This document shows positions 5,398 to 51,280 of a DNA stretch of 64,000 nucleotides, piece after piece. Positions within the stretch are counted from its first letter, which is position 1. The number at the start of each line of letters is the position of its first letter. A program made the position numbers and the translations under genes. A model generated the notes under the pieces. That model did no database searches and had not been told where the DNA came from. It saw only the letters and a list, made by a program, of their open reading frames with translations. Source of the stretch: Escherichia coli (GTDB lineage: Bacteria > Pseudomonadota > Gammaproteobacteria > Enterobacterales > Enterobacteriaceae); NCBI RefSeq assembly GCF_036507355.1, contig NZ_AP027877.1; one strand, written 5' to 3'.

Positions 5398-5490
5398 GGT
5401 GAGGTGGCCGAGAGGCTGAAGGCGCTCCCCTGCTAAGGGAGTATGCGGTCAAAAGCTGCATCCGGGGTTCGAATCCCCGCCTCACCGCCA
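5398..5490 (+). tRNA. serV: tRNA-Ser (anticodon GCU)
   Basis: 93-nt sequence ggtgaggtggccgagaggctgaagg...ctcaccgcca with long variable arm and anticodon loop ctGCTaa. Confidence 0.93.
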
Positions 5491-5493
5491 TTT

Positions 5494-5570
5494 GCATCCG
5501 TAGCTCAGCTGGATAGAGTACTCGGCTACGAACCGAGCGGTCGGAGGTTCGAATCCTCCCGGATGCACCA
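5494..5570 (+). tRNA. argV: tRNA-Arg (anticodon ACG)
   Basis: 77-nt gcatccgtagctcagctggatagagtactcggctACGaaccgag...ggatgcacca. Confidence 0.93.
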
Positions 5571-5634
5571 TCTCTTACTTGATACGGCTTTAGTAGCGGT
5601 ATCAAAAAATCTGCAGTAAAGTAAGTTTCCCGAT

Positions 5635-5711
5635 GCATCCGTAGCTCAGCTGGATAGAGTACTCGGCTACGAACCGAGCGGTCGGAGGTTCGAATCCTCC
5701 CGGATGCACCA
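5635..5711 (+). tRNA. argY: tRNA-Arg (anticodon ACG)
   Basis: Identical 77-nt tRNA-Arg copy. Confidence 0.93.
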
Positions 5712-5773
5712 TCTCTTACTTGATATGGCTTTAGTAGCGGTATCAATATCAGCAGTAAAATAAATTTCCCGAT

Positions 5774-5850
5774 GCATCCGTAGCTCAGCTGGATAGAGTA
5801 CTCGGCTACGAACCGAGCGGTCGGAGGTTCGAATCCTCCCGGATGCACCA
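5774..5850 (+). tRNA. argZ: tRNA-Arg (anticodon ACG)
   Basis: Identical 77-nt tRNA-Arg copy. Confidence 0.93.
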
Positions 5851-5952
5851 TATTCTCCGTAATCATCAGTGATGATGGTTAAGAAGGATTTTCTTACTTG
5901 ATATGGCTTTAGTAGCGATATCAATATCAGCAGTAAAATAAATTTTCCCGAT

Positions 5953-6029
5953 GCATCCGTAGCTCAGCTGGATAGAGTACTCGGCTACGAACCGAGCGGT
6001 CGGAGGTTCGAATCCTCCCGGATGCACCA
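5953..6029 (+). tRNA. argQ: tRNA-Arg (anticodon ACG)
   Basis: Identical 77-nt tRNA-Arg copy. Confidence 0.93.
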
Positions 6030-8936: not shown

Positions 8937-9011
8937 AGAAAAAGGCCACTCGTGAGTGGCCAAAATTTCATCTCTGAATTCAGGGATGATGATAACAAAT
9001 GCGCGTCTTTC
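8937..9011 (-). ncRNA. micA: MicA (SraD) small regulatory RNA
   Basis: Minus-strand reading gives gaaagacgcgcatttgttatcatcatccctgaattcagagatgaaattttggccactcacgagtggccttttt, which matches the MicA sequence as I recall it; ends in a stem-loop plus U-tract. Confidence 0.8.
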
Positions 9012-17664: not shown

Positions 17665-17745
17665 GTAGGCATGATAAGACGCGCCAGCGTCGCATCAGGC
17701 ATTGTGTACAGAACGGCGGATGCGGCGTATACGCCTTATCCGCCC
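17665..17745. repeat. REP (repetitive extragenic palindromic) elements
   Basis: gtaggcatgataagacgcgccagcgtcgcatcaggc and cggatgcggcgtatacgccttatccg palindromic units. Confidence 0.8.
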
Positions 17746-17754
17746 GAATAAAAA

Positions 17755-31502: not shown

Positions 31503-32165
31503 TTAATTGCCAGCCATCGCCTGCTGGATAATGGGAATTGGCGTCAGTAAATGCTGGCGCATTAACTCACTGGCGCGCGCGGTATCTCGCGCCAGTACCG
31601 CCGCAGTCAGGGTCTGGTGCTGATCGTGTTTATCCTCCAGCATTTCCACCGAAAGCACCGTTCGCCGCAGCCAGATAAATCGATAACGCGCCGCCAGATC
31701 AAACAACCGTTCACGCATTTGCAGCAAATAGTGAGAACCACAGCCCGCCACAATTGCAGTATGAAACGCCTGATGACGCAGATCCCACTCATCAAGCATT
31801 TTCTCGCTGGCGTCACAGGCCTCAAGCTTACTCAGCAGATGCGCTTTTGCGAGAACGTCTGCCTCCCACTCATTGCCACCGCGGGCAATCGCCAGACTCA
31901 CTAACATCGCTTCCATATTGGCGCGGGCGTCGAAAATATCGAGCAGCTCCTGCTCTGACATAGACGCCACCCGATACCCTTTTTGATTCACCACCGTGAC
32001 CAGCCGTTCCGCCACCAGTTGAGAAAGTGCTTCCCGCAACGGCCCAACGCCAAGTGCATAACGCGATGTCAGCAAACTCATCCGTAATTTTTCATCCGGT
32101 TGAAAATTACCGCGAATAATATCGTTCTTCAGCCAGCGATAGCCATCCAGAGACGTAATGGTCAT
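31503..32165 (-). CDS. csiR: GntR-family regulator CsiR
   Basis: ORF ...MTITSLDGYRWLKNDIIRGNFQPDEKLRMSLLTSRY...; downstream of gabP. Confidence 0.9.
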   Translation of the reverse strand: MTITSLDGYRWLKNDIIRGNFQPDEKLRMSLLTSRYALGVGPLREALSQLVAERLVTVVNQKGYRVASMSEQELLDIFDARANMEAMLVSLAIARGGNEWEADVLAKAHLLSKLEACDASEKMLDEWDLRHQAFHTAIVAGCGSHYLLQMRERLFDLAARYRFIWLRRTVLSVEMLEDKHDQHQTLTAAVLARDTARASELMRQHLLTPIPIIQQAMAGN

Positions 32166-32185
32166 GGTGTGACTCCTGATCATTA

Positions 32186-33586
32186 TCAGCGCGTATTATG
32201 AACGGGTGTTTTTTGCCACAATACCAGCTTTTTCCAGCGAGCCATAATTGGCACGGTACAGATAATCCCTATCGCTAATAAGCCAGTGGAGATCACTTCT
32301 AACTGTTGCGCCGGGCGGAATAGCATCACTACCAACACAAAGGTAATAAAGCCGATGACCAGCCAGGTGAGCCACGGGTAAAGCCACATCCGCAGGCGAA
32401 TTTCGCTTCCTTCTGCTCGCAGAATTTTACGCATCCGCAACTGTGAAACGGCGATGACTAAATAAACCAGCAGGGCGATAGCACCGGAGCTGTCTATCAG
32501 GAATTTAAACACTTTCGCAGGTGCGTAATAGTTCACCACCACCGTTAAAAATGCCGCTCCGGTGGAGAGTAACACCGCCACATACGGGGTTTTACTGCGG
32601 TTGATTTTGCCCATTACCGCGGGCGCATCACCGCGACGGCTTAAGGAGTAGAGCATCCTTGACGCGGTATACAGCGCCGAGTTCAGACAGCTGGTTACGG
32701 AAAGTAATATCACGCAGTCCATGATTAATTTCGCATGGGGAATATTGAGCAATTCCAGAACCGAGCGATAAGAACCAACGGCTTTCAGCCCCGGCATATT
32801 CCACGGTATTAACGCCACTACGACAAAAATAGAGCACAAATAGAAGATAGAAATACGCCAGATAACCGAGTTGGTAGCGCGGACAATATGTTTTTCCGGC
32901 GTGTCGGATTCCGCGGCGGCAATGGTGACAATTTCTGCGCCCATAAACGAGAACATGGTGATCAACATCGCGCTTAATACCGCACCGAAGCCGTTGGGCA
33001 TAAAGCCGCCGCTATCCCACAATCTTGAGATCCCGCTCACGTCGGCATACGGGTAAAAACCGCTAATTGCGACTGCACCAAGGAAAATAAAGGCCAGGAT
33101 AGCGATGACTTTGCACAGCGCCAGCCAGAACTCAAATTCGCCGTAGTTTTTAACGCTTAATAAATTACTGCCAGTTAAGGCAAGGGTAATGACGAGGGAA
33201 AATAACCAGATGGGAATGCCTGGAACCCACGAGTGCAGGATCATGGCGGCGATGTTGGCTTCCAGCGGGATAACCAGTACCCAAAACCACCAGTACAACC
33301 AGCCGATGGTATAGCCCGCCCAGCGACCAATGGCTTTATCGGCATAGGTGGAAAACGAACCGGTATCGGGCGTGGCAACCGCCATTTCCGCCAACATCCG
33401 CATAATCATAACCACCAGTAGCCCGGCGAACAGATAGGCCAGTAATACCGCCGGGCCCGCTTCGGCGATGGCGACGCTGGAACCGACAAACAGACTTGCG
33501 CCGATAACACCGGCAATAGACAACATGGTGACATGGCGTGACTTCAGCCCGCCGCCTAACTCATGTGGTTGCGATGATTGCCCCAT
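32186..33586 (-). CDS. gabP: GABA permease GabP
   Basis: APC-family ORF; start placed at MGQSSQPHELGGGLKSRHVTM. Confidence 0.93.
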   Translation of the reverse strand: MGQSSQPHELGGGLKSRHVTMLSIAGVIGASLFVGSSVAIAEAGPAVLLAYLFAGLLVVMIMRMLAEMAVATPDTGSFSTYADKAIGRWAGYTIGWLYWWFWVLVIPLEANIAAMILHSWVPGIPIWLFSLVITLALTGSNLLSVKNYGEFEFWLALCKVIAILAFIFLGAVAISGFYPYADVSGISRLWDSGGFMPNGFGAVLSAMLITMFSFMGAEIVTIAAAESDTPEKHIVRATNSVIWRISIFYLCSIFVVVALIPWNMPGLKAVGSYRSVLELLNIPHAKLIMDCVILLSVTSCLNSALYTASRMLYSLSRRGDAPAVMGKINRSKTPYVAVLLSTGAAFLTVVVNYYAPAKVFKFLIDSSGAIALLVYLVIAVSQLRMRKILRAEGSEIRLRMWLYPWLTWLVIGFITFVLVVMLFRPAQQLEVISTGLLAIGIICTVPIMARWKKLVLWQKTPVHNTR

Positions 33587-33734
33587 CCTGAATCCTCTCG
33601 AAAGTGTGTCACTTGGGAGAGCGCCCCGACATTTCCCGCGTCGGGTCACGCGTTTAATTGTTATTGATTCTTTTTGCCGGAGAGCGGCTCCGCCTTACCC
33701 GGCCAACATAGATTTATTCCTGTTCACGTACAGA

Positions 33735-34087
33735 TTGTCGGATGCGGCGTAGACGCCTTATCCGACCTGGATCCCCGTAGGCCGGACAAGACGCAAAGCG
33801 TCGCCTCCGGCATGGGTGCGCCGATTGTCGGATGCGGCGCAAACGCCTTATCCGACCTACATTTCCGTAGGCCGGACAAGACGCGTAAGCGTCGCCTCCG
33901 GCATGGTGCGCCGAATGTCGGATGCGGCGTAAACGCCTTATCCGACCTACACTCTCGTAGGCCGGACAAGACGCGTAAGCGTCGCCTCCGGCATGGTGCG
34001 CCGAATGTCGGATGCGGCGTTAACGCCTTATCCGACCTACACTCTCGTAGGCCGGACAAGACGCGCAGCGTCGCCTCCGGCATGGGG
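33735..34087. repeat. BIME/REP array (about 4 tandem units of ~85-90 bp)
   Basis: Repeated tgtcggatgcggcg...acgccttatccgacct...gtaggccggacaagacgcg...gcgtcgcctccggcatgg units between gabT and gabP. Confidence 0.85.
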
Positions 34088-34093
34088 GCGGTG

Positions 34094-35374
34094 CTACTGC
34101 TTCGCCTCAGCAAAACACTGGCCGATGATCTCCAGCCCCTGACGAATCTGAGCGTCTTCAATGGTGAGCGGTACAAGGATGCGCAGCACGTTGTAATACG
34201 GGCCGCAGGAGAGAAGAATCAGGCCTTTATCGCGGGCGCGAGCCACGATCTCGGCGGTGAGTTTGGCGTCCGGCTTGTTGTGATCGCCGTCTTCAAACAG
34301 CTCGATGGCGATCATCGCCCCCAGCCCGCGTACGTCGCCGATCTCGGTGTGTTTTTCGGCGATCGCCAACAATCCATCTTTCAACTTCTGCCCCAGATCG
34401 TTGGCTTTCTGCAGCAGATTTTCCTGCTCGAACACCTTCAACACTTCCAGCGCCGCCACGCAGGCAATCGGATTACCGGCATAGGTGCCGCCCAGCCCGC
34501 CTGGAGCGACGGCATCCATCACTTCGGCGCGCCCGGTGACGCCCGCCAGCGGGAAGCCGCCCGCGATCGATTTCGCAAAGGTGGTAAGATCCGGCGCAAC
34601 GCCCATTTGCTCCATCGCAAACAGCGTGCCGGTACGCCCCGCGCCGCTCTGCACTTCATCGGCAATCAGCATGATCCCGTGCTCATCACACAGCGCGCGT
34701 AAACGCTGCATAAAAGCTGGCGTAGCGGCGTAGAAACCGCCTTCGCCCTGAACCGGCTCAATCACGATGGCGGCAATATCTTCCGGCGCGGCGTCATTTT
34801 TGAAGATCCGGTGGATGCTGGCGATAGCGTCATCTTCACTGATGCCGTGCAGTGGGCAAGGATAAAGCGCGCGATAAACGTGCCCTGGCATCAGGCCCAT
34901 GCCCGCAGAGTACGGATTCACCTTGCCGGTCAGCGCCAGCGTGTAATGCGTGCGCCCGTGATACGCGCCGCTAAAGGCGATGGTGCCGCTACGTTTGGTG
35001 GCAGCGCGGGCGATCTTCACCGCGTTTTCCACCGCTTCTGAACCGGTCGTAACCAGCAGCGTTTTCTTGGCAAAATCGCCCGGCACCTTCTGATTCATAA
35101 TCTCGCACAGCTCCAGATACGGCTCGTAAGCCAGCACCTGGAAGCAGGTGTGCGACAGTTTTTTCAACTGCGCTTCCACAGCCGCAACCACTTTCGGATG
35201 CAGGTGCCCGGTATTGAGCACCGCAATGCCGCCCGCGAAATCAAGATACTCACGGCCTTCAACGTCCCACACCCGGCAGTTTTCCGCGCGATCAGCGAAA
35301 ATGGGGTGAATTTGCCCAACGCCACGAGGAACTGCCTGACTGCGGCGCTGCATTAACTCTTTATTGCTGCTCAT
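34094..35374 (-). CDS. gabT: 4-aminobutyrate aminotransferase GabT
   Basis: 426-aa class III aminotransferase ORF MSSNKELMQRRSQAVPRGVGQIHPIFADRAEN... Confidence 0.95.
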   Translation of the reverse strand: MSSNKELMQRRSQAVPRGVGQIHPIFADRAENCRVWDVEGREYLDFAGGIAVLNTGHLHPKVVAAVEAQLKKLSHTCFQVLAYEPYLELCEIMNQKVPGDFAKKTLLVTTGSEAVENAVKIARAATKRSGTIAFSGAYHGRTHYTLALTGKVNPYSAGMGLMPGHVYRALYPCPLHGISEDDAIASIHRIFKNDAAPEDIAAIVIEPVQGEGGFYAATPAFMQRLRALCDEHGIMLIADEVQSGAGRTGTLFAMEQMGVAPDLTTFAKSIAGGFPLAGVTGRAEVMDAVAPGGLGGTYAGNPIACVAALEVLKVFEQENLLQKANDLGQKLKDGLLAIAEKHTEIGDVRGLGAMIAIELFEDGDHNKPDAKLTAEIVARARDKGLILLSCGPYYNVLRILVPLTIEDAQIRQGLEIIGQCFAEAKQ

Positions 35375-35387
35375 TCGCGTTCTCCAG

Positions 35388-36836
35388 TTAAAGACCGATG
35401 CACATATATTTGATTTCTAAGTAATCTTCGATGCCATACTTCGAACCTTCACGACCCAGACCCGAGGCTTTAATGCCGCCGAACGGGGCCACTTCATTGG
35501 AAATAATCCCGGTATTGATGCCGACGATGCCGTACTCCAGCGCCTCGCCCACGCGGAAGACGCGGCTTAAATCACGGGCATAGAAATAGGCGGCAAGGCC
35601 AAACTCGGTGTCATTGGCTTGCGCGATCACATCGGCTTCATCTTTAAAACGGAACAGCGGGGCGAGGGGGCCGAAGGTCTCTTCTTTCGACACTTTGGCG
35701 TTGGCCGGCACGTCCACCAGAATGGTGGGCTGGAAGAAGTTGCCGCCGCGTTCATGTGCTTTACCGCCGCAAACTACGCGCGCGCCTTTCTCCAGCGCAT
35801 CGGCAATATGCTCTTCCACTTTTGCTACCGCTTTTTCATCGATCAGCGGCCCGATGGTGACGCCTTTATCCAGCCCGTCGCCGATATGCAGTTTGCTCAC
35901 CGCCTGCTGCAATTTTTCGGCAAAGCGGTCATACACGCCGTCCTGCACGTATAAACGGTTGGCGCAGACGCAGGTTTGCCCGGCGTTGCGGAATTTCGAG
36001 GCCAGTGCGCCTTCCACGGCTTTATCGAGATCGGCATCGTCAAAGACGATAAACGGCGCGTTGCCGCCCAGCTCCAGCGACACTTTTTTGATGTCTTTCG
36101 CGCACTGTTCCATTAACTGGCGGCCAATTTCGGTCGAACCGGTAAACGACAGTTTGCGCACCAGCGGATTGCTGGTCAGTTCGTTACCCACCGCGCCCGC
36201 CGAACCGGTGACCACGTTAAATACGCCAGCCGGAATGCCCGCGCGGATTGCCAGTTCTGCCAGCGCCAGCGCAGAGAACGGCGTCTGACTGGCGGGCTTC
36301 AGCACCATGGTGCAGCCTGCCGCCAGCGCCGGACCGGCTTTACGGGTAATCATCGCCGCCGGGAAGTTCCACGGCGTGATGGCCGCGGTAACGCCAATCG
36401 GCTGCTTGATCACAATCAGGCGCTTATCGGCCTGATGACCGGGGATGGTGTCGCCATAAATGCGTTTGCCTTCTTCGGCAAACCACTCAATAAAAGAGGC
36501 GGCGTAGCTGATTTCGCCTTTCGCTTCAGCCAGCGGTTTACCCTGTTCGAGGGTCATCAGGCGCGCTAAATCGTCCTGATGCTCCATCATCAAATTGAAC
36601 CAGTTGCGCAGAATGTTGGCGCGTTCTTTGGCGGTGAGCGCGCGCCATGCGGGCAGGGCGCGGTTGGCGGCGTCGATAGCGGCGCGGGTTTCATCTGCGC
36701 CCATTTTCGGCACGCTACCCAGCTTGTCGCCGTTCGCCGGATTGGTGACGTCGATGACTTCACCATTGTTGGCGTCCAGCCATTCCCCGTTAATCAACGC
36801 CTGCTGGCGGAATAAGTTACTGTCGTTCAGTTTCAT
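35388..36836 (-). CDS. gabD: Succinate-semialdehyde dehydrogenase GabD
   Basis: 482-aa aldehyde dehydrogenase ORF MKLNDSNLFRQQALINGEWLDANNGE... Confidence 0.95.
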   Translation of the reverse strand: MKLNDSNLFRQQALINGEWLDANNGEVIDVTNPANGDKLGSVPKMGADETRAAIDAANRALPAWRALTAKERANILRNWFNLMMEHQDDLARLMTLEQGKPLAEAKGEISYAASFIEWFAEEGKRIYGDTIPGHQADKRLIVIKQPIGVTAAITPWNFPAAMITRKAGPALAAGCTMVLKPASQTPFSALALAELAIRAGIPAGVFNVVTGSAGAVGNELTSNPLVRKLSFTGSTEIGRQLMEQCAKDIKKVSLELGGNAPFIVFDDADLDKAVEGALASKFRNAGQTCVCANRLYVQDGVYDRFAEKLQQAVSKLHIGDGLDKGVTIGPLIDEKAVAKVEEHIADALEKGARVVCGGKAHERGGNFFQPTILVDVPANAKVSKEETFGPLAPLFRFKDEADVIAQANDTEFGLAAYFYARDLSRVFRVGEALEYGIVGINTGIISNEVAPFGGIKASGLGREGSKYGIEDYLEIKYMCIGL

Positions 36837-43047: not shown

Positions 43048-43123
43048 GGCCCTTTAGCTCAGTGGTTAGAGCAGGCGACTCATAATCGCTTGGTCGCTGG
43101 TTCAAGTCCAGCAGGGGCCACCA
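43048..43123 (+). tRNA. ileY: tRNA-Ile2 (anticodon CAU/lysidine type)
   Basis: 76-nt ggccctttagctcagtggttagagcaggcgactCATaatcgcttggtcgctggttcaagtccagcaggggccacca. Confidence 0.9.
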
Positions 43124-46149: not shown

Positions 46150-47653
46150 ATGAAATTTATGAACAGGACCAGTCCCTATTATTTTCGCCGCTCAGTACTT
46201 TCCTTATTGATATCTACCTTAATATATGCCCAGCCCGGGATGGCGGCCTTCACTACTAATGTTATTGGTGTGGTAAACGATGAGACTGTAGATGGCAACC
46301 AACGAGTAGATGAACGAGGTACAACAAATAACACTCATATTATCAACCATGGCCGGCAGGAGGTCTATGGTGGGATATCTAATAGTAGTATTATTGAAAC
46401 TGGTGGCGAGCAACTAGTATCAATCCATGCCGATATTAACGGGCAAGCTAATAATACAACCATTAATGGAGGCAGACAGTCAATTGAGTACGGAGGAATT
46501 TCTACTAGCACGATAATCGAAAGTGGCAATCAATATGTTCATAAAGGTGGTACCAGCAATGACACGACAATTAAGGGCGGTACTTCACGCATAGAGGGGG
46601 GGACTGCAAATGGAACAATCATTGATGGTGGTAGCCAACAAGTAACAACTCAGGGGCATGTTGACGGTACAACGATAAATAAGTCTGGCTCTCAGGACGT
46701 AGTACAAGGAAGTCTGGCAACGAACACAACCATAAATGGTGGTCGACAGTATGTTGAACAGAGCACAGTAGAAACAACAACCATTAAAAATGGCGGTGAG
46801 CAAAGAGTATATGAGAGCCGTGCGCTGGACACGACGATTGAAGGCGGAACTCAGTCTCTGAATAGTAAGTCAACGGCAAAAAATACACAGATCTATTCTG
46901 GTGGCACGCAAATTGTTGATAACACCAGCTCCTCGGATGTTATTGAAGTTTATTCCGGTGGCGTGCTTGATGTTAGTGGTGGTACGGCAACAAATGTTAC
47001 CCAGCACGATGGTGCAATTTTAAAAACTAACACTAACGGTACGACGGTGAGCGGTACGAATAGTGAAGGTGCATTCTCCATCCACAATCACGTGGCAGAC
47101 AATGTGTTGCTGGAAAACGGTGGTCATTTAGACATAAACGCATATGGTTCGGCAAACAAGACGATTATTAAAGATAAAGGAACAATGTCAGTTTTAACCA
47201 ATGCTAAAGCTGATGCGACCCGAATAGATAATGGCGGGGTTATGGATGTTGCAGGAAACGCGACAAATACCATAATTAATGGTGGCACACAGAATATTAA
47301 TAATTATGGCATAGCCACAGGCACCAATATCAACAGCGGAACGCAAAATATCAAAAGCGGCGGGAAAGCTGACACAACAATTATATCCTCCGGGAGCCGG
47401 CAGGTTGTTGAGAAAGATGGTACGGCAATTGGCAGCAATATTAGCGCCGGAGGCTCGCTGATTGTCTATACCGGCGGTATTGCACATGGGGTTAACCAGG
47501 AGACGGGCAGTGCTTTAGTTGCCAACACGGGTGCAGGGACTGATATCGAAGGATACAACAAGCTCTCTCACTTCACTATTACCGGAGGGGAGGCTAATTA
47601 TGTTGTGCTGGAAAACGCTGGCTCATTAACAGTCGTCACTGGTTCCCGGGCAG
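46150..47653 (+). pseudogene. Autotransporter-adhesin passenger domain (ypjA-like), truncated by IS1
   Basis: Signal peptide MKFMNRTSPYYFRRSVLSLLISTLIYAQPGMA then repeated ...TTINGGRQ...GGT.. motifs; reading frame runs directly into the IS1 left end at 47654; no beta-barrel domain. Confidence 0.75.
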
Positions 47654-48421
47654 GGTGATGCTGCCAACTTACTGATTTAGTGTATGATGGTGTTTTTGAG
47701 GTGCTCCAGTGGCTTCTGTTTCTATCAGCTGTCCCTCCTGTTCAGCTACTGACGGGGTGGTGCGTAACGGCAAAAGCACCGCCGGACATCAGCGCTATCT
47801 CTGCTCTCACTGCCGTAAAACATGGCAACTGCAGTTCACTTACACCGCTTCTCAACCCGGTACGCACCAGAAAATCATTGATATGGCCATGAATGGCGTT
47901 GGATGCCGGGCAACAGCCCGCATTATGGGCGTTGGCCTCAACACGATTTTACGTCACTTAAAAAACTCAGGCCGCAGTCGGTAACCTCGCGCATACAGCC
48001 GGGCAGTGACGTCATCGTCTGCGCGGAAATGGACGAACAGTGGGGCTATGTCGGGGCTAAATCGCGCCAGCGCTGGCTGTTTTACGCGTATGACAGGCTC
48101 CGGAAGACGGTTGTTGCGCACGTATTCGGTGAACGCACGATGGCGACGCTGGGGCGTCTTATGAGCCTGCTGTCACCCTTTGACGTGGTGATATGGATGA
48201 CGGATGGCTGGCCGCTGTATGAATCCCGCCTGAAGGGAAAGCTGCACGTAATCAGCAAGCGATATACGCAGCGAATTGAGCGGCATAACCTGAATCTGAG
48301 GCAGCACCTGGCACGGCTGGGACGGAAGTCGCTGTCGTTCTCAAAATCGGTGGAGCTGCATGACAAAGTCATCGGGCATTATCTGAACATAAAACACTAT
48401 CAATAAGTTGGAGTCATTACC
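47654..48421 (+). mobile_element. IS1 insertion sequence, copy 2 (768 bp, no target-site duplication)
   Basis: Same sequence and orientation as copy 1 (identical InsA/InsB translations); flanks cccgggcag / gaggttttg do not match. Confidence 0.95.
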
Positions 48422-49521: not shown

Positions 49522-50751
49522 TTATGCGGCAATAACTTTGCATTTTTGAGACGAAACATAGTCACTCCACCATTGCATGAGAACCACCCGTTCAGTGAGA
49601 TACTCTGCACGATTGTAGGCTGCAATTATTTCATCTTTCTTCGAGTGGGCAAGGGCGGCTTCTAAGACATCAGTCCTAAACTTGCCAGACTCCTCAGCAG
49701 CCGTTCTAGCAATGGATCGCATACCGTGAGCTACAAGCTCACCTCCGAAACCCATACGGATTATGGCCGCATTAGCTGTTTGTTCATGCATGTGATTGAG
49801 TGGAGCTTTGATACTGGGGAACACCCACTCTCTATGCCCGCTGATGACTTTCATTAAATCCAAAACTCGCAAAGCTTCTTTGCTCAGTGGAACTTTGTGA
49901 GGCTTCTTCATTTTCATAAACTCCGCCGGGATGTTCCACATGCCAGTTTCAATATCAATATCTGACCATCTTGTGCGAACAGCTTCACCTGGGCGAACCC
50001 ATGTGAGAAGTTGCCACTCAATCAGTAGCCTTGTTTCCAAACGGATAGAAGCATTGTTTAGAGCAACCAAGAAGCGAGGGAGTTCGGAAGGGGGTAATGC
50101 TGGCATATTCTGTTTTTTTGGCTTGCTGAACCGTTGCCCCAGGTTGTCTGCCGGGTTGAATTCTATGAGTTCTTCTGTTGCTGCATAGCGGAAAATTTCA
50201 TTCAGGCGGGATATGATGCGGCGAAGTGTTTCAAGGACACCTCGTTTTTCTATGGGTTCTAAATGCTGTTTAAGCATTTTAGGGCGAATCTCCTTAATTG
50301 GGGTATCACCCAATGTGGAAAAGATATTTCTCTCTAGGCTTCGCCAGATGTCGTTAGCATGATCTTGGGAGATGCCTGACGTTTTGACTTTCTCATCAAG
50401 CCACTTCTTGGCTACTGCTTGAAATGTATGTTCCGTGGCATCTTTCAGTGCATTGGCTTTTTGGTTGTTATGAACTTGGGGGTCTATACCATTTGTAAGC
50501 AACGACAAGTATTCATCACGTAAAGCTCGTGCCTTCGCAAGTGTAAGGTGAGGATAGGTTCCTAAGCTCACCTTAGTTCGCTTTTTGGTCACAGGCACTG
50601 CATATCTGAAATACCAATTTTTCTTCCCTCCCTTCGCCAGGGGAGCGATTCGCAACAGCAAACCATCGCCGTCAAAAAGGTTAACCTCTTTTTCGGCAGG
50701 TTTGGTGCTTTTGATTTCAGTGTCAGTGAGCTTCTTAGCGATTTTGGCCAT
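49522..50751 (-). CDS. P4-type tyrosine integrase adjacent to tmRNA
   Basis: ORF ...MAKIAKKLTDTEIKSTKPAEKEVNLFDGDGLLLRIAP...WYFRY...; C-terminal catalytic domain (HGMRSIARTAAEE); 166 bp from the ssrA 3' end. Confidence 0.88.
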   Translation of the reverse strand: MAKIAKKLTDTEIKSTKPAEKEVNLFDGDGLLLRIAPLAKGGKKNWYFRYAVPVTKKRTKVSLGTYPHLTLAKARALRDEYLSLLTNGIDPQVHNNQKANALKDATEHTFQAVAKKWLDEKVKTSGISQDHANDIWRSLERNIFSTLGDTPIKEIRPKMLKQHLEPIEKRGVLETLRRIISRLNEIFRYAATEELIEFNPADNLGQRFSKPKKQNMPALPPSELPRFLVALNNASIRLETRLLIEWQLLTWVRPGEAVRTRWSDIDIETGMWNIPAEFMKMKKPHKVPLSKEALRVLDLMKVISGHREWVFPSIKAPLNHMHEQTANAAIIRMGFGGELVAHGMRSIARTAAEESGKFRTDVLEAALAHSKKDEIIAAYNRAEYLTERVVLMQWWSDYVSSQKCKVIAA

Positions 50752-50917
50752 GTTTGGGACCCTCGATTTTAGGACCCATCTTCGTGGGTCCCATTCAGGG
50801 TGCCATAACTCGTAGTTCTCAGCAATTCTCACTAGACTACAATAGACGTAAAAAAGCCCGCAGAGCTTGTGCTGTGCGGGCTTAGTAGACTTTACTGAAC
50901 TTCAGTACATCAATATT

Positions 50918-51280
50918 TGGTGGAGCTGGCGGGAGTTGAACCCGCGTCCGAAATTCCTACATCCTCGGTACTACATGCTTAGTCAGTCTTTACATTCGCT
51001 TGCCAGCTGCGGACGGACACGCCACTAACAAACTAGCCTGATTAAGTTTTAACGCTTCAACCCCAGGCAGGGCTTCCACGCGATCTCTTTTGGGTTTGAC
51101 CTCTCTTGATCCCCGTCCTAAGAGCGGAGGCTAGGGAGAGAGGGCTCTAAGCAGGTTATTAAGCTGCTAAAGCGTAGTTTTCGTCGTTTGCGACTATTTT
51201 TTGCGGCTTTTTACGAGGCCAACCGCCCCTCGGCATGCACCTTGGGTTTCGCAAATCCCGTCGAATCCAGAATCAGCCCC
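50918..51280 (-). ncRNA. ssrA: tmRNA (SsrA)
   Basis: Minus-strand reading starts ggggctgattctggattcgacggg and ends gttcaactcccgccagctccacca; encodes tag peptide ANDENYALAA (gcaaacgacgaaaactacgctttagcagct); 363 nt. Confidence 0.95.

Follow-up and report, generated by a model that had tools for sequence, protein, structure and literature searches.

In the stretch of Escherichia coli DNA analysed here (64,000 nucleotides of contig NZ_AP027877.1, hereafter the window), the spacer between gabT and gabP contains a tandem BIME-2 array of four units. Most E. coli have one unit at this locus, and the four-unit copy-number allele is rare. By analogy with the REP325 element of E. coli K-12, this array probably stabilises the gabDT mRNA and attenuates read-through into gabP. 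We observed the identity, the anatomy and the copy-number polymorphism of the array directly in genome sequences. The array itself is of an ordinary and known kind, as the structure, the polymorphism and the likely regulatory role of BIME-2 elements have already been described.

Genomic context of the array

The array sits within the csiD-lhgO-gabDTP operon, between two co-oriented genes. The neighbouring genes all lie on the minus strand and were assigned with NCBIfam models:

35388-36836, minus: gabD, equivalog model
34094-35374, minus: gabT (4-aminobutyrate transaminase), NF005985 with 911.7 bits against a cut-off of 713; upstream of the array
32186-33586, minus: gabP (GABA permease), NF007566 with 1062 bits against a cut-off of 871; downstream of the array
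31503-32183, minus: csiR, equivalog model

The gene lhgO, likewise on the minus strand and assigned by an equivalog model, adjoins the gab genes, and glaH/csiD follows further on. In the list of open reading frames gabP begins earlier, at the GTG at 33649. We placed its start at the ATG at 33586, from which NF007566 covers residues 1-466 of 466; RefSeq gabP in K-12 and in isolate GPT24-02 is the same 1401-nt gene. The untranslated gabT-gabP spacer spans 33587-34093 (507 bp), and a promoter scan of this interval found no promoter-like site. The operon has been described as csiD-ygaF-gabDTP, without a promoter for gabP.

One long open reading frame crosses the array on the opposite strand:

33674-34702, plus: spurious open reading frame of 342 codons (1029 nt) with a TTG start, from the list of open reading frames

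The first-pass annotation had dismissed this frame as spurious, and our analysis agrees. It has no NCBIfam family match. An antisense overlap with gabT accounts for 609 of the 1029 nt, and the remainder, which encodes the N-terminal 140 amino acids, is translated repeat. The frame stays open because the units are spaced exactly 90 nt start to start. An uninterrupted frame of this length, kept in phase by the unit spacing, is what could be cited for a real gene, but the REP-derived N-terminal part changes length with copy number and is missing from the approximately 25% of E. coli alleles that are REP-free. Together with the missing family match and the antisense overlap this makes a real gene extremely improbable, and the frame should not be reported by gene callers.

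Identity and anatomy of the array

The repeat elements of the spacer are the following:

33737-34082, minus: BIME-2 array of eight REPs, z2-type and y-type in turn (four of each) and inverted relative to each other; from Tandem Repeats Finder, repeat search, comparison with REP325 and Rfam
34047-34082, minus: z2-type REP 1, nearest gabT, read from the sequence; predicted RNA hairpin of -20.7 kcal/mol
33957-33993, 33867-33903 and 33777-33812, minus: other z2-type REPs, read from the sequence
34007-34041, minus: y-type REP 1, from sequence comparison; predicted RNA hairpin of -17.4 kcal/mol
33917-33951, 33827-33861 and 33737-33771, minus: other y-type REPs, from sequence comparison
33676-33707, plus: degenerate single REP (GCCGGAGAGCGGCTCCGCCTTACCCGGCCAAC) on the gabP side of the array, from comparison of spacers at 23 Enterobacterales loci; predicted hairpin of -14.0 kcal/mol

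Tandem Repeats Finder reported a single array at 33736-34085 with a period of 90, 3.9 copies, 93% matches and a score of 579, and a repeat search recovered four in-register copies with 90-nt spacing. A four-unit REP/BIME array between gabT and gabP had been annotated at 33735-34087 from the sequence, and both its identity and its coordinates, which agree within 2 nt, are confirmed. The array consists of 3.9 units of ~90 bp, each with one z2-type and one inverted y-type REP, and contains eight hairpins in total. In the gab sense, a unit starts with the z2 REP (GCCGGAGGCGACGC-loop-GCGTCTTGTCCGGCCTAC), which ends in CCTAC and is followed by a head-to-head linker of 6-9 nt. The inverted y REP (GTAGGTCGGATAAGGCG-loop-CGCCGCATCCGAC) comes next, beginning with GTAGG, and a tail-to-tail linker of ~14 nt leads to the next z2 REP; both linkers are short.

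The stem of z2 REP 1 (GCCGGA) begins 12 nt past the TAG stop codon of gabT (34096-34094). All four z2 REPs and the three y REPs closer to gabT carry GTAG at the foot; the fourth y REP, on the gabP side, has CCAG. Predicted RNA folds show an internal AA/GC loop in the y REPs and mismatches in the z2 REPs, and the REP stems are nearly invariant among 38 distinct units. One y-z2 pair can alternatively fold into a single long hairpin (-46.5 kcal/mol), and the minimum free energy structure of the full-length spacer is a mix of local REP hairpins and long y:z2 pairings. The fold of the spacer sense strand has a z-score of -9.4 relative to shuffled sequences. Furthermore, the Rfam family RF02564 (naRNA4) matched the minus (sense) strand at 33780-33857, 33870-33947 and 33960-34037 with 66.0, 77.1 and 75.0 bits (E values from 1e-9 to 6e-12; gathering score 59.5 bits), while its plus-strand matches reached 54-56 bits and stayed below the gathering threshold. 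Judged by the naRNA4 E values and the fold z-score, the array is far beyond chance.

According to the definition of Gilson and Bachellier, as restated in PMC3333891 and PMC1187871, BIME-2 elements combine y and z2 REPs in inverted orientation and in tandem copies (two to twelve REPs). The same sources describe GTAG at the foot of an imperfect palindrome of 30-40 nt with an internal stem mismatch, an extragenic location, length polymorphism between isolates and named linker motifs (S between the two REPs; s, l or r flanking them). The gab array shows the y/z2 make-up, the inverted order, the tandem copies, the GTAG and the mismatched palindrome, and it is extragenic and polymorphic; its y/z2 typing is based on comparison with the REPs of K-12 REP325. 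It is a textbook BIME-2, a repeat family of E. coli and Shigella. The K-12 RefSeq feature table lists no REP features.

Copy number within E. coli

To determine the allele distribution, we compared a 1101-bp query across the spacer with 5,426 complete E. coli genomes, of which 5,425 gave matches, and used the subject span as the allele; representative spacer alleles were read directly. The following states were found:

~831 bp span: one unit, as in K-12; large majority of genomes
~857 bp span (~1.5 units): second z2 REP present, and fusion of the last y REP with the degenerate REP; 12 of the 60 best-ranked records
~920 bp span: two units; 5 of the 60 best-ranked records
~1010 bp span: three units; 26 of the 60 best-ranked records
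~1101 bp span: four units; 7 records
~904 bp span, 61% query coverage: BIME replaced by unrelated sequence, REP-free; ~25% (1,367 below 80% coverage)

The expectation that unit number would vary between strains is borne out, with 0, 1, ~1.5, 2, 3 or 4 units in E. coli and 1 to 15.7 in other Escherichia. Alleles with two to four units make up under 1% of the 5,426 complete genomes, among which four units is the largest state, and a 60-nt query for the unit-to-unit junction (at least 80% coverage) matched only 74 of them. The linker variants GAGAGT, GGAAAT and GGGGATCCA are ordered differently in different four-unit strains, which points to recombination among units rather than to one simple duplication. 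We infer that the copy-number alleles arise via unequal recombination, replication slippage between units or a REP-associated transposase.

The REP-free E. coli spacer is 310 bp long (loci L003 1288-1597, L008 3880-4189 and L011 4282-4590) and holds a G-rich palindrome (GGGGAGAGGGTTAGGGTGAGGGG), possibly the 'box C' repeat; strain AS19 is one carrier of this allele. In its 5' part this spacer is similar to spacers of some Citrobacter and Pluralibacter that likewise have no REP. None of the complete E. coli genomes in the set was identical to the window at this locus. The best match reached 97.6% at the locus and 98.9% over proVWX-nrdEF, and belongs to the O55:H7/O157:H7 lineage.

Comparison across species

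A search of species-representative genomes with GabT yielded 28 Enterobacterales loci, and the spacer was taken from 23 of them. Within Escherichia the same BIME-2 subtype is present in E. whittamii (one unit), E. albertii (two units) and Escherichia sp. E1V33 (three units). The largest array was found in Escherichia sp. MOD1-EC7003, with 15.7 tandem units of 95-bp period in a gabT-gabP spacer of 1.6 kb (locus L006 4291-5780). One or two REPs occupy the site in most Citrobacter, in two Salmonella subspecies and in a Klebsiella MAG, and among the 23 spacers those of two Citrobacter, Pluralibacter and Hafnia had no REP there.

The REP common to Citrobacter, Salmonella and the Klebsiella MAG is a well-formed counterpart of the degenerate REP at 33676-33707 of the window. 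This suggests that a REP between gabT and gabP is older than the Escherichia BIME-2, and the degenerate REP is probably ancestral. Judged from the compared spacers, the y/z2 BIME-2 and its expansion at this locus are specific to Escherichia. The REP-free alleles of ~25% of E. coli and of some relatives indicate that the BIME is dispensable for the operon.

Two loci of the species comparison stood out in their coding sequences. The gab proteins on a contig of Pseudocitrobacter faecalis DSM 27453 (L011) are 98-99% identical to those of E. coli and are accompanied by the E. coli REP-free spacer, which suggests contamination or a recent transfer. In Hafnia (L021, L023), GabT is 89% identical to E. 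coli GabT and the gabP leader described below is present, which is unexpectedly close for another family.

A conserved structured leader upstream of gabP

Between the array and gabP, the spacer contains a further conserved element:

33594-33652, minus: conserved, structured, single-copy gabP leader, from alignment and RNAalifold

This leader comprises the 60-70 nt directly upstream of gabP and occurs in both the BIME and the REP-free alleles of E. coli. It was found as a single copy in 5,396 of the 5,426 E. coli genomes and is also present in many Citrobacter, Hafnia and Pluralibacter; Salmonella, C. amalonaticus, C. portucalensis and a Klebsiella MAG lack it altogether. RNAalifold predicted two hairpins. 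The first contains three pairs with compensatory double changes across genera, a number that was reached in 6 of 500 shuffles. The second is invariant and is predicted to pair CUCUC with the GAGAG of the gabP Shine-Dalgarno sequence. The minimum free energy of the leader is not unusual (z = -0.1), and the leader has no Rfam family match. If the leader limits translation of gabP, it could explain part of the difference between gabT and gabP transcript levels in K-12 (see below), and RNA of the spacer would then also be accessible to Rho and RNases.

Proposed effect on gab expression

In the model that we favour, the array would be transcribed within the csiD-lhgO-gabDTP mRNA, and each REP would fold as a stable, G+C-rich hairpin. 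These hairpins may block 3'-to-5' exonucleases and so stabilise the upstream gabD-gabT message. Transcripts may furthermore end at the array or be trimmed back to it, which would leave less gabP than gabT message; as for REP325, the ending of transcripts might be partly Rho-dependent and grow with hairpin number. Finally, the first hairpin, 12 nt past the gabT stop codon, may stall terminating ribosomes, by which GabT synthesis would be trimmed. We infer all three steps for this strain by analogy: since the gab array shares class, context and orientation with REP325, a dual action as exonuclease barrier and attenuator appears likely.

Deletion of REP325 raised expression of the downstream gene yjdN ~10-fold and lowered that of the upstream gene yjdM ~3-fold, and REP325 RNA was detected as a ladder of truncated species (bioRxiv 10.64898/2026.03.23.713779). 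In the same study, bicyclomycin approximately doubled read-through of the full REP325 with 12 hairpins and had no effect on fragments with two or four hairpins (10.64898/2026.03.23.713779). With its eight hairpins, the gab array lies between the Rho-insensitive 4-hairpin and the Rho-dependent 12-hairpin construct. Genome-wide, tandem gene pairs with a REP between them were on average biased towards the upstream gene, and the study emphasises a wide variance that depends on context, with no general effect on half-life (10.64898/2026.03.23.713779).

For K-12 itself, the supplement of this preprint (10.64898/2026.03.23.713779) gives DESeq2 baseMeans of 86 for glaH, 277 for lhgD, 648 for gabD, 795 for gabT and 90 for gabP. 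The step from gabT to gabP is ~9-fold and falls exactly across the spacer, which in K-12 holds one unit and, as a confounder, the gabP leader. The first-pass annotation had suggested, in hedged form, that the array may act as an mRNA stabiliser or partial terminator and may set the gabT:gabP expression ratio, and such a putative role agrees with the REP325 experiments and the K-12 gene counts. The K-12 step could instead reflect the leader that sequesters the Shine-Dalgarno sequence, poor gabP translation or differential decay. Literature searches for gabT or gabP with REP, or for gabT with bicyclomycin, returned nothing specific to this locus.

We also considered two conventional modes of termination. 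An intrinsic terminator was rejected: no terminator-like site was found on the sense strand of 33587-34093, and downstream of the REP hairpins the sequence reads CCUAC... or AUUCGG... and has no U runs. A classical rut site is not supported either, as the sense strand has no C-over-G bias (C/G = 0.95). From the lack of both a U-tract hairpin and a C-over-G bias it follows that any termination within the spacer would have to occur without an intrinsic terminator or a classical rut site. Looked up by coordinates and by REP number, the gab REP of K-12 does not appear among the REPs that bind Rho in vitro in the accessible part of the supplement of 10.64898/2026.03.23.713779, where only the neighbouring REP193 (proX-ygaY) is listed.

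Alternative explanations

The extra units may be selfish or neutral DNA, generated by unequal crossing-over, slippage or a REP transposase, with no meaningful effect on gab expression in addition to that of one unit or of the bare spacer. The population data can be read in this way, since the single-unit allele dominates and multi-unit alleles are rare among the 5,426 genomes, roughly a quarter of E. coli lack the REPs altogether, and unit order is shuffled between strains. The rarity of the multi-unit alleles agrees better with a neutral or mildly deleterious expansion than with a selected setting. Length polymorphism among isolates is moreover general for BIME-2 (PMC3333891; Bachellier et al. 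1997, as cited in PMC1187871). Such an expansion explains the origin of the array, and an effect on expression is still compatible with it. Against functional silence stand the strong effect of REP325 on its neighbour genes and the rise of Rho dependence with hairpin number, and 270 nt of extra structured, untranslated RNA within an operon are unlikely to be fully silent. Overall we consider it unlikely that the extra units have no meaningful effect.

A somewhat more plausible, although still doubtful, alternative places the main effect in translation. Here the ribosome that terminates on gabT would stall at the first REP hairpin, 12 nt beyond the stop codon, which would lead to mRNA cleavage, tmRNA tagging and less GabT, and unit number would be irrelevant. 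According to Liang, Rudd and Deutscher (2015), as summarised in PMC12306157, translation is reduced and terminating ribosomes stall when a REP lies less than 16 nt from a stop codon. REP 1 of the gab array lies within this limit, with 12 nt from TAG to GCCGGA, and the same distance was found in every BIME allele examined. On the other hand, gabT has the highest mRNA level of the operon in K-12. Ribosome stalling is compatible with stabilisation and attenuation by the array and does not exclude them.

The array could also act at the level of DNA or the nucleoid, either as a strong, transcription-independent gyrase site at the y REPs or through naRNA4-like RNAs that condense the chromosome together with HU. 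Gyrase cleavage is over-represented in BIME-2 elements and prefers y REPs, but gyrase sites occur in only a subset of these elements (PMC6379681). The naRNA4 matches of the array exceed the gathering threshold, and condensation of DNA by naRNA4 together with HU has been reported (PMC4550694); a preprint from 2026, which shares an author with that paper from 2015, found neither nucleoid compaction nor REP-REP contacts nor a stable ternary complex for REP325/naRNA4 (10.64898/2026.03.23.713779). The nucleoid role of naRNA4 and HU is disputed, and a role of the gab array at this level seems improbable to us.

Stabilisation of gabDT mRNA combined with attenuation of gabP read-through remains the explanation that we prefer. 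Beyond it, one may speculate that the gab BIME is a heritable and reversible 'rheostat', in which gain or loss of 90-bp units (0 to ~16 in Escherichia) would tune the amount of permease per GABA-catabolic enzyme jointly with the fixed, Shine-Dalgarno-sequestering gabP leader. This would allow adaptive differences in GABA uptake with no change in promoter or coding sequence. We regard this idea as distinctly unlikely. The locus offers a natural allelic series (REP-free, 1, 2, 3, 4 and ~16 units) in which the flanking genes and the gabP leader are identical. With this series one could ask whether REP arrays behave as graded 'dials' on expression ratios within operons, as has recently been proposed.

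Other features of the window

The gene order of the window is that of the 2.75-2.82 Mb region of K-12 in reverse. The distance from ssrA to the gab genes is ~17 kb in the window and ~38 kb in K-12. Besides the gab array, the following features were observed:

5398-6029: cluster of tRNA-Ser and four tRNA-Arg(ACG) genes
8940-9011: MicA sRNA
17665-17749, minus: second BIME-2, a single unit adjoining proX; Rfam naRNA4 with 74.3 bits
40307-41075 and 47653-48421: two identical direct repeats of 769 bp, IS1 transposase (NCBIfam NF033558)
43048-43123: tRNA-Met(CAT), within the ~6.6 kb between the IS1 copies
49522-50832: integrase gene, adjoining the tmRNA gene
50918-51280: tmRNA gene

The segment between the IS1 copies also contains a gene of the YpjCB family and a fragment of an Ag43/AIDA-like autotransporter. 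The K-12 counterpart of the BIME-2 at 17665-17749 is REP193 (proX-ygaY), which overlaps an in-vitro Rho-binding site according to the supplement of 10.64898/2026.03.23.713779.

Comparison with known systems

The system closest in class and context is REP325 of K-12, which lies between yjdM and yjdN and is the source of naRNA1-6 (RF02564). Both arrays consist of tandem pairs of y and z2 REPs between co-oriented genes of one operon, with equal orientation of the units relative to transcription, and three units of the gab array score above the naRNA4 threshold. The two arrays differ in size, as REP325 contains six units of 100 bp and the gab array four of ~90 bp, and in the head-to-head linker, which is 17 nt long in REP325 and 6-9 nt in the gab array. 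From REP325 to the gab array, the y REP changes from GCCGGA/TCCGGC to GTCGGA/TCCGAC, so that one compensatory pair is the whole difference. The z2 REP changes from GCCTGA/TCAGGC to GCCGGA/TCCGGC, with five positions that differ, including one compensatory pair. The function of REP325 has been measured, whereas that of the gab array is proposed by analogy. With the BIME-2 elements that carry gyrase sites, for example those at sucC-sucB and tldD-yhdP, the gab array shares the repeat class.

At the locus itself, the K-12 gabT-gabP spacer (237 bp, K-12 positions 2,794,016-2,794,252, single unit) has the same REP subtypes, the same 12-nt distance to the stop codon, the degenerate REP and the gabP leader. 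The window has 270 bp more, in the form of three additional units whose y REPs are all accompanied by an intact GTAG; the single unit of K-12 has CCAG at that position. The array of Escherichia sp. MOD1-EC7003 occupies the same locus with the same REP subtypes; it differs from that of the window by its 15.7 units of 95 bp and by a longer head-to-head linker (AAAATGGACCT).
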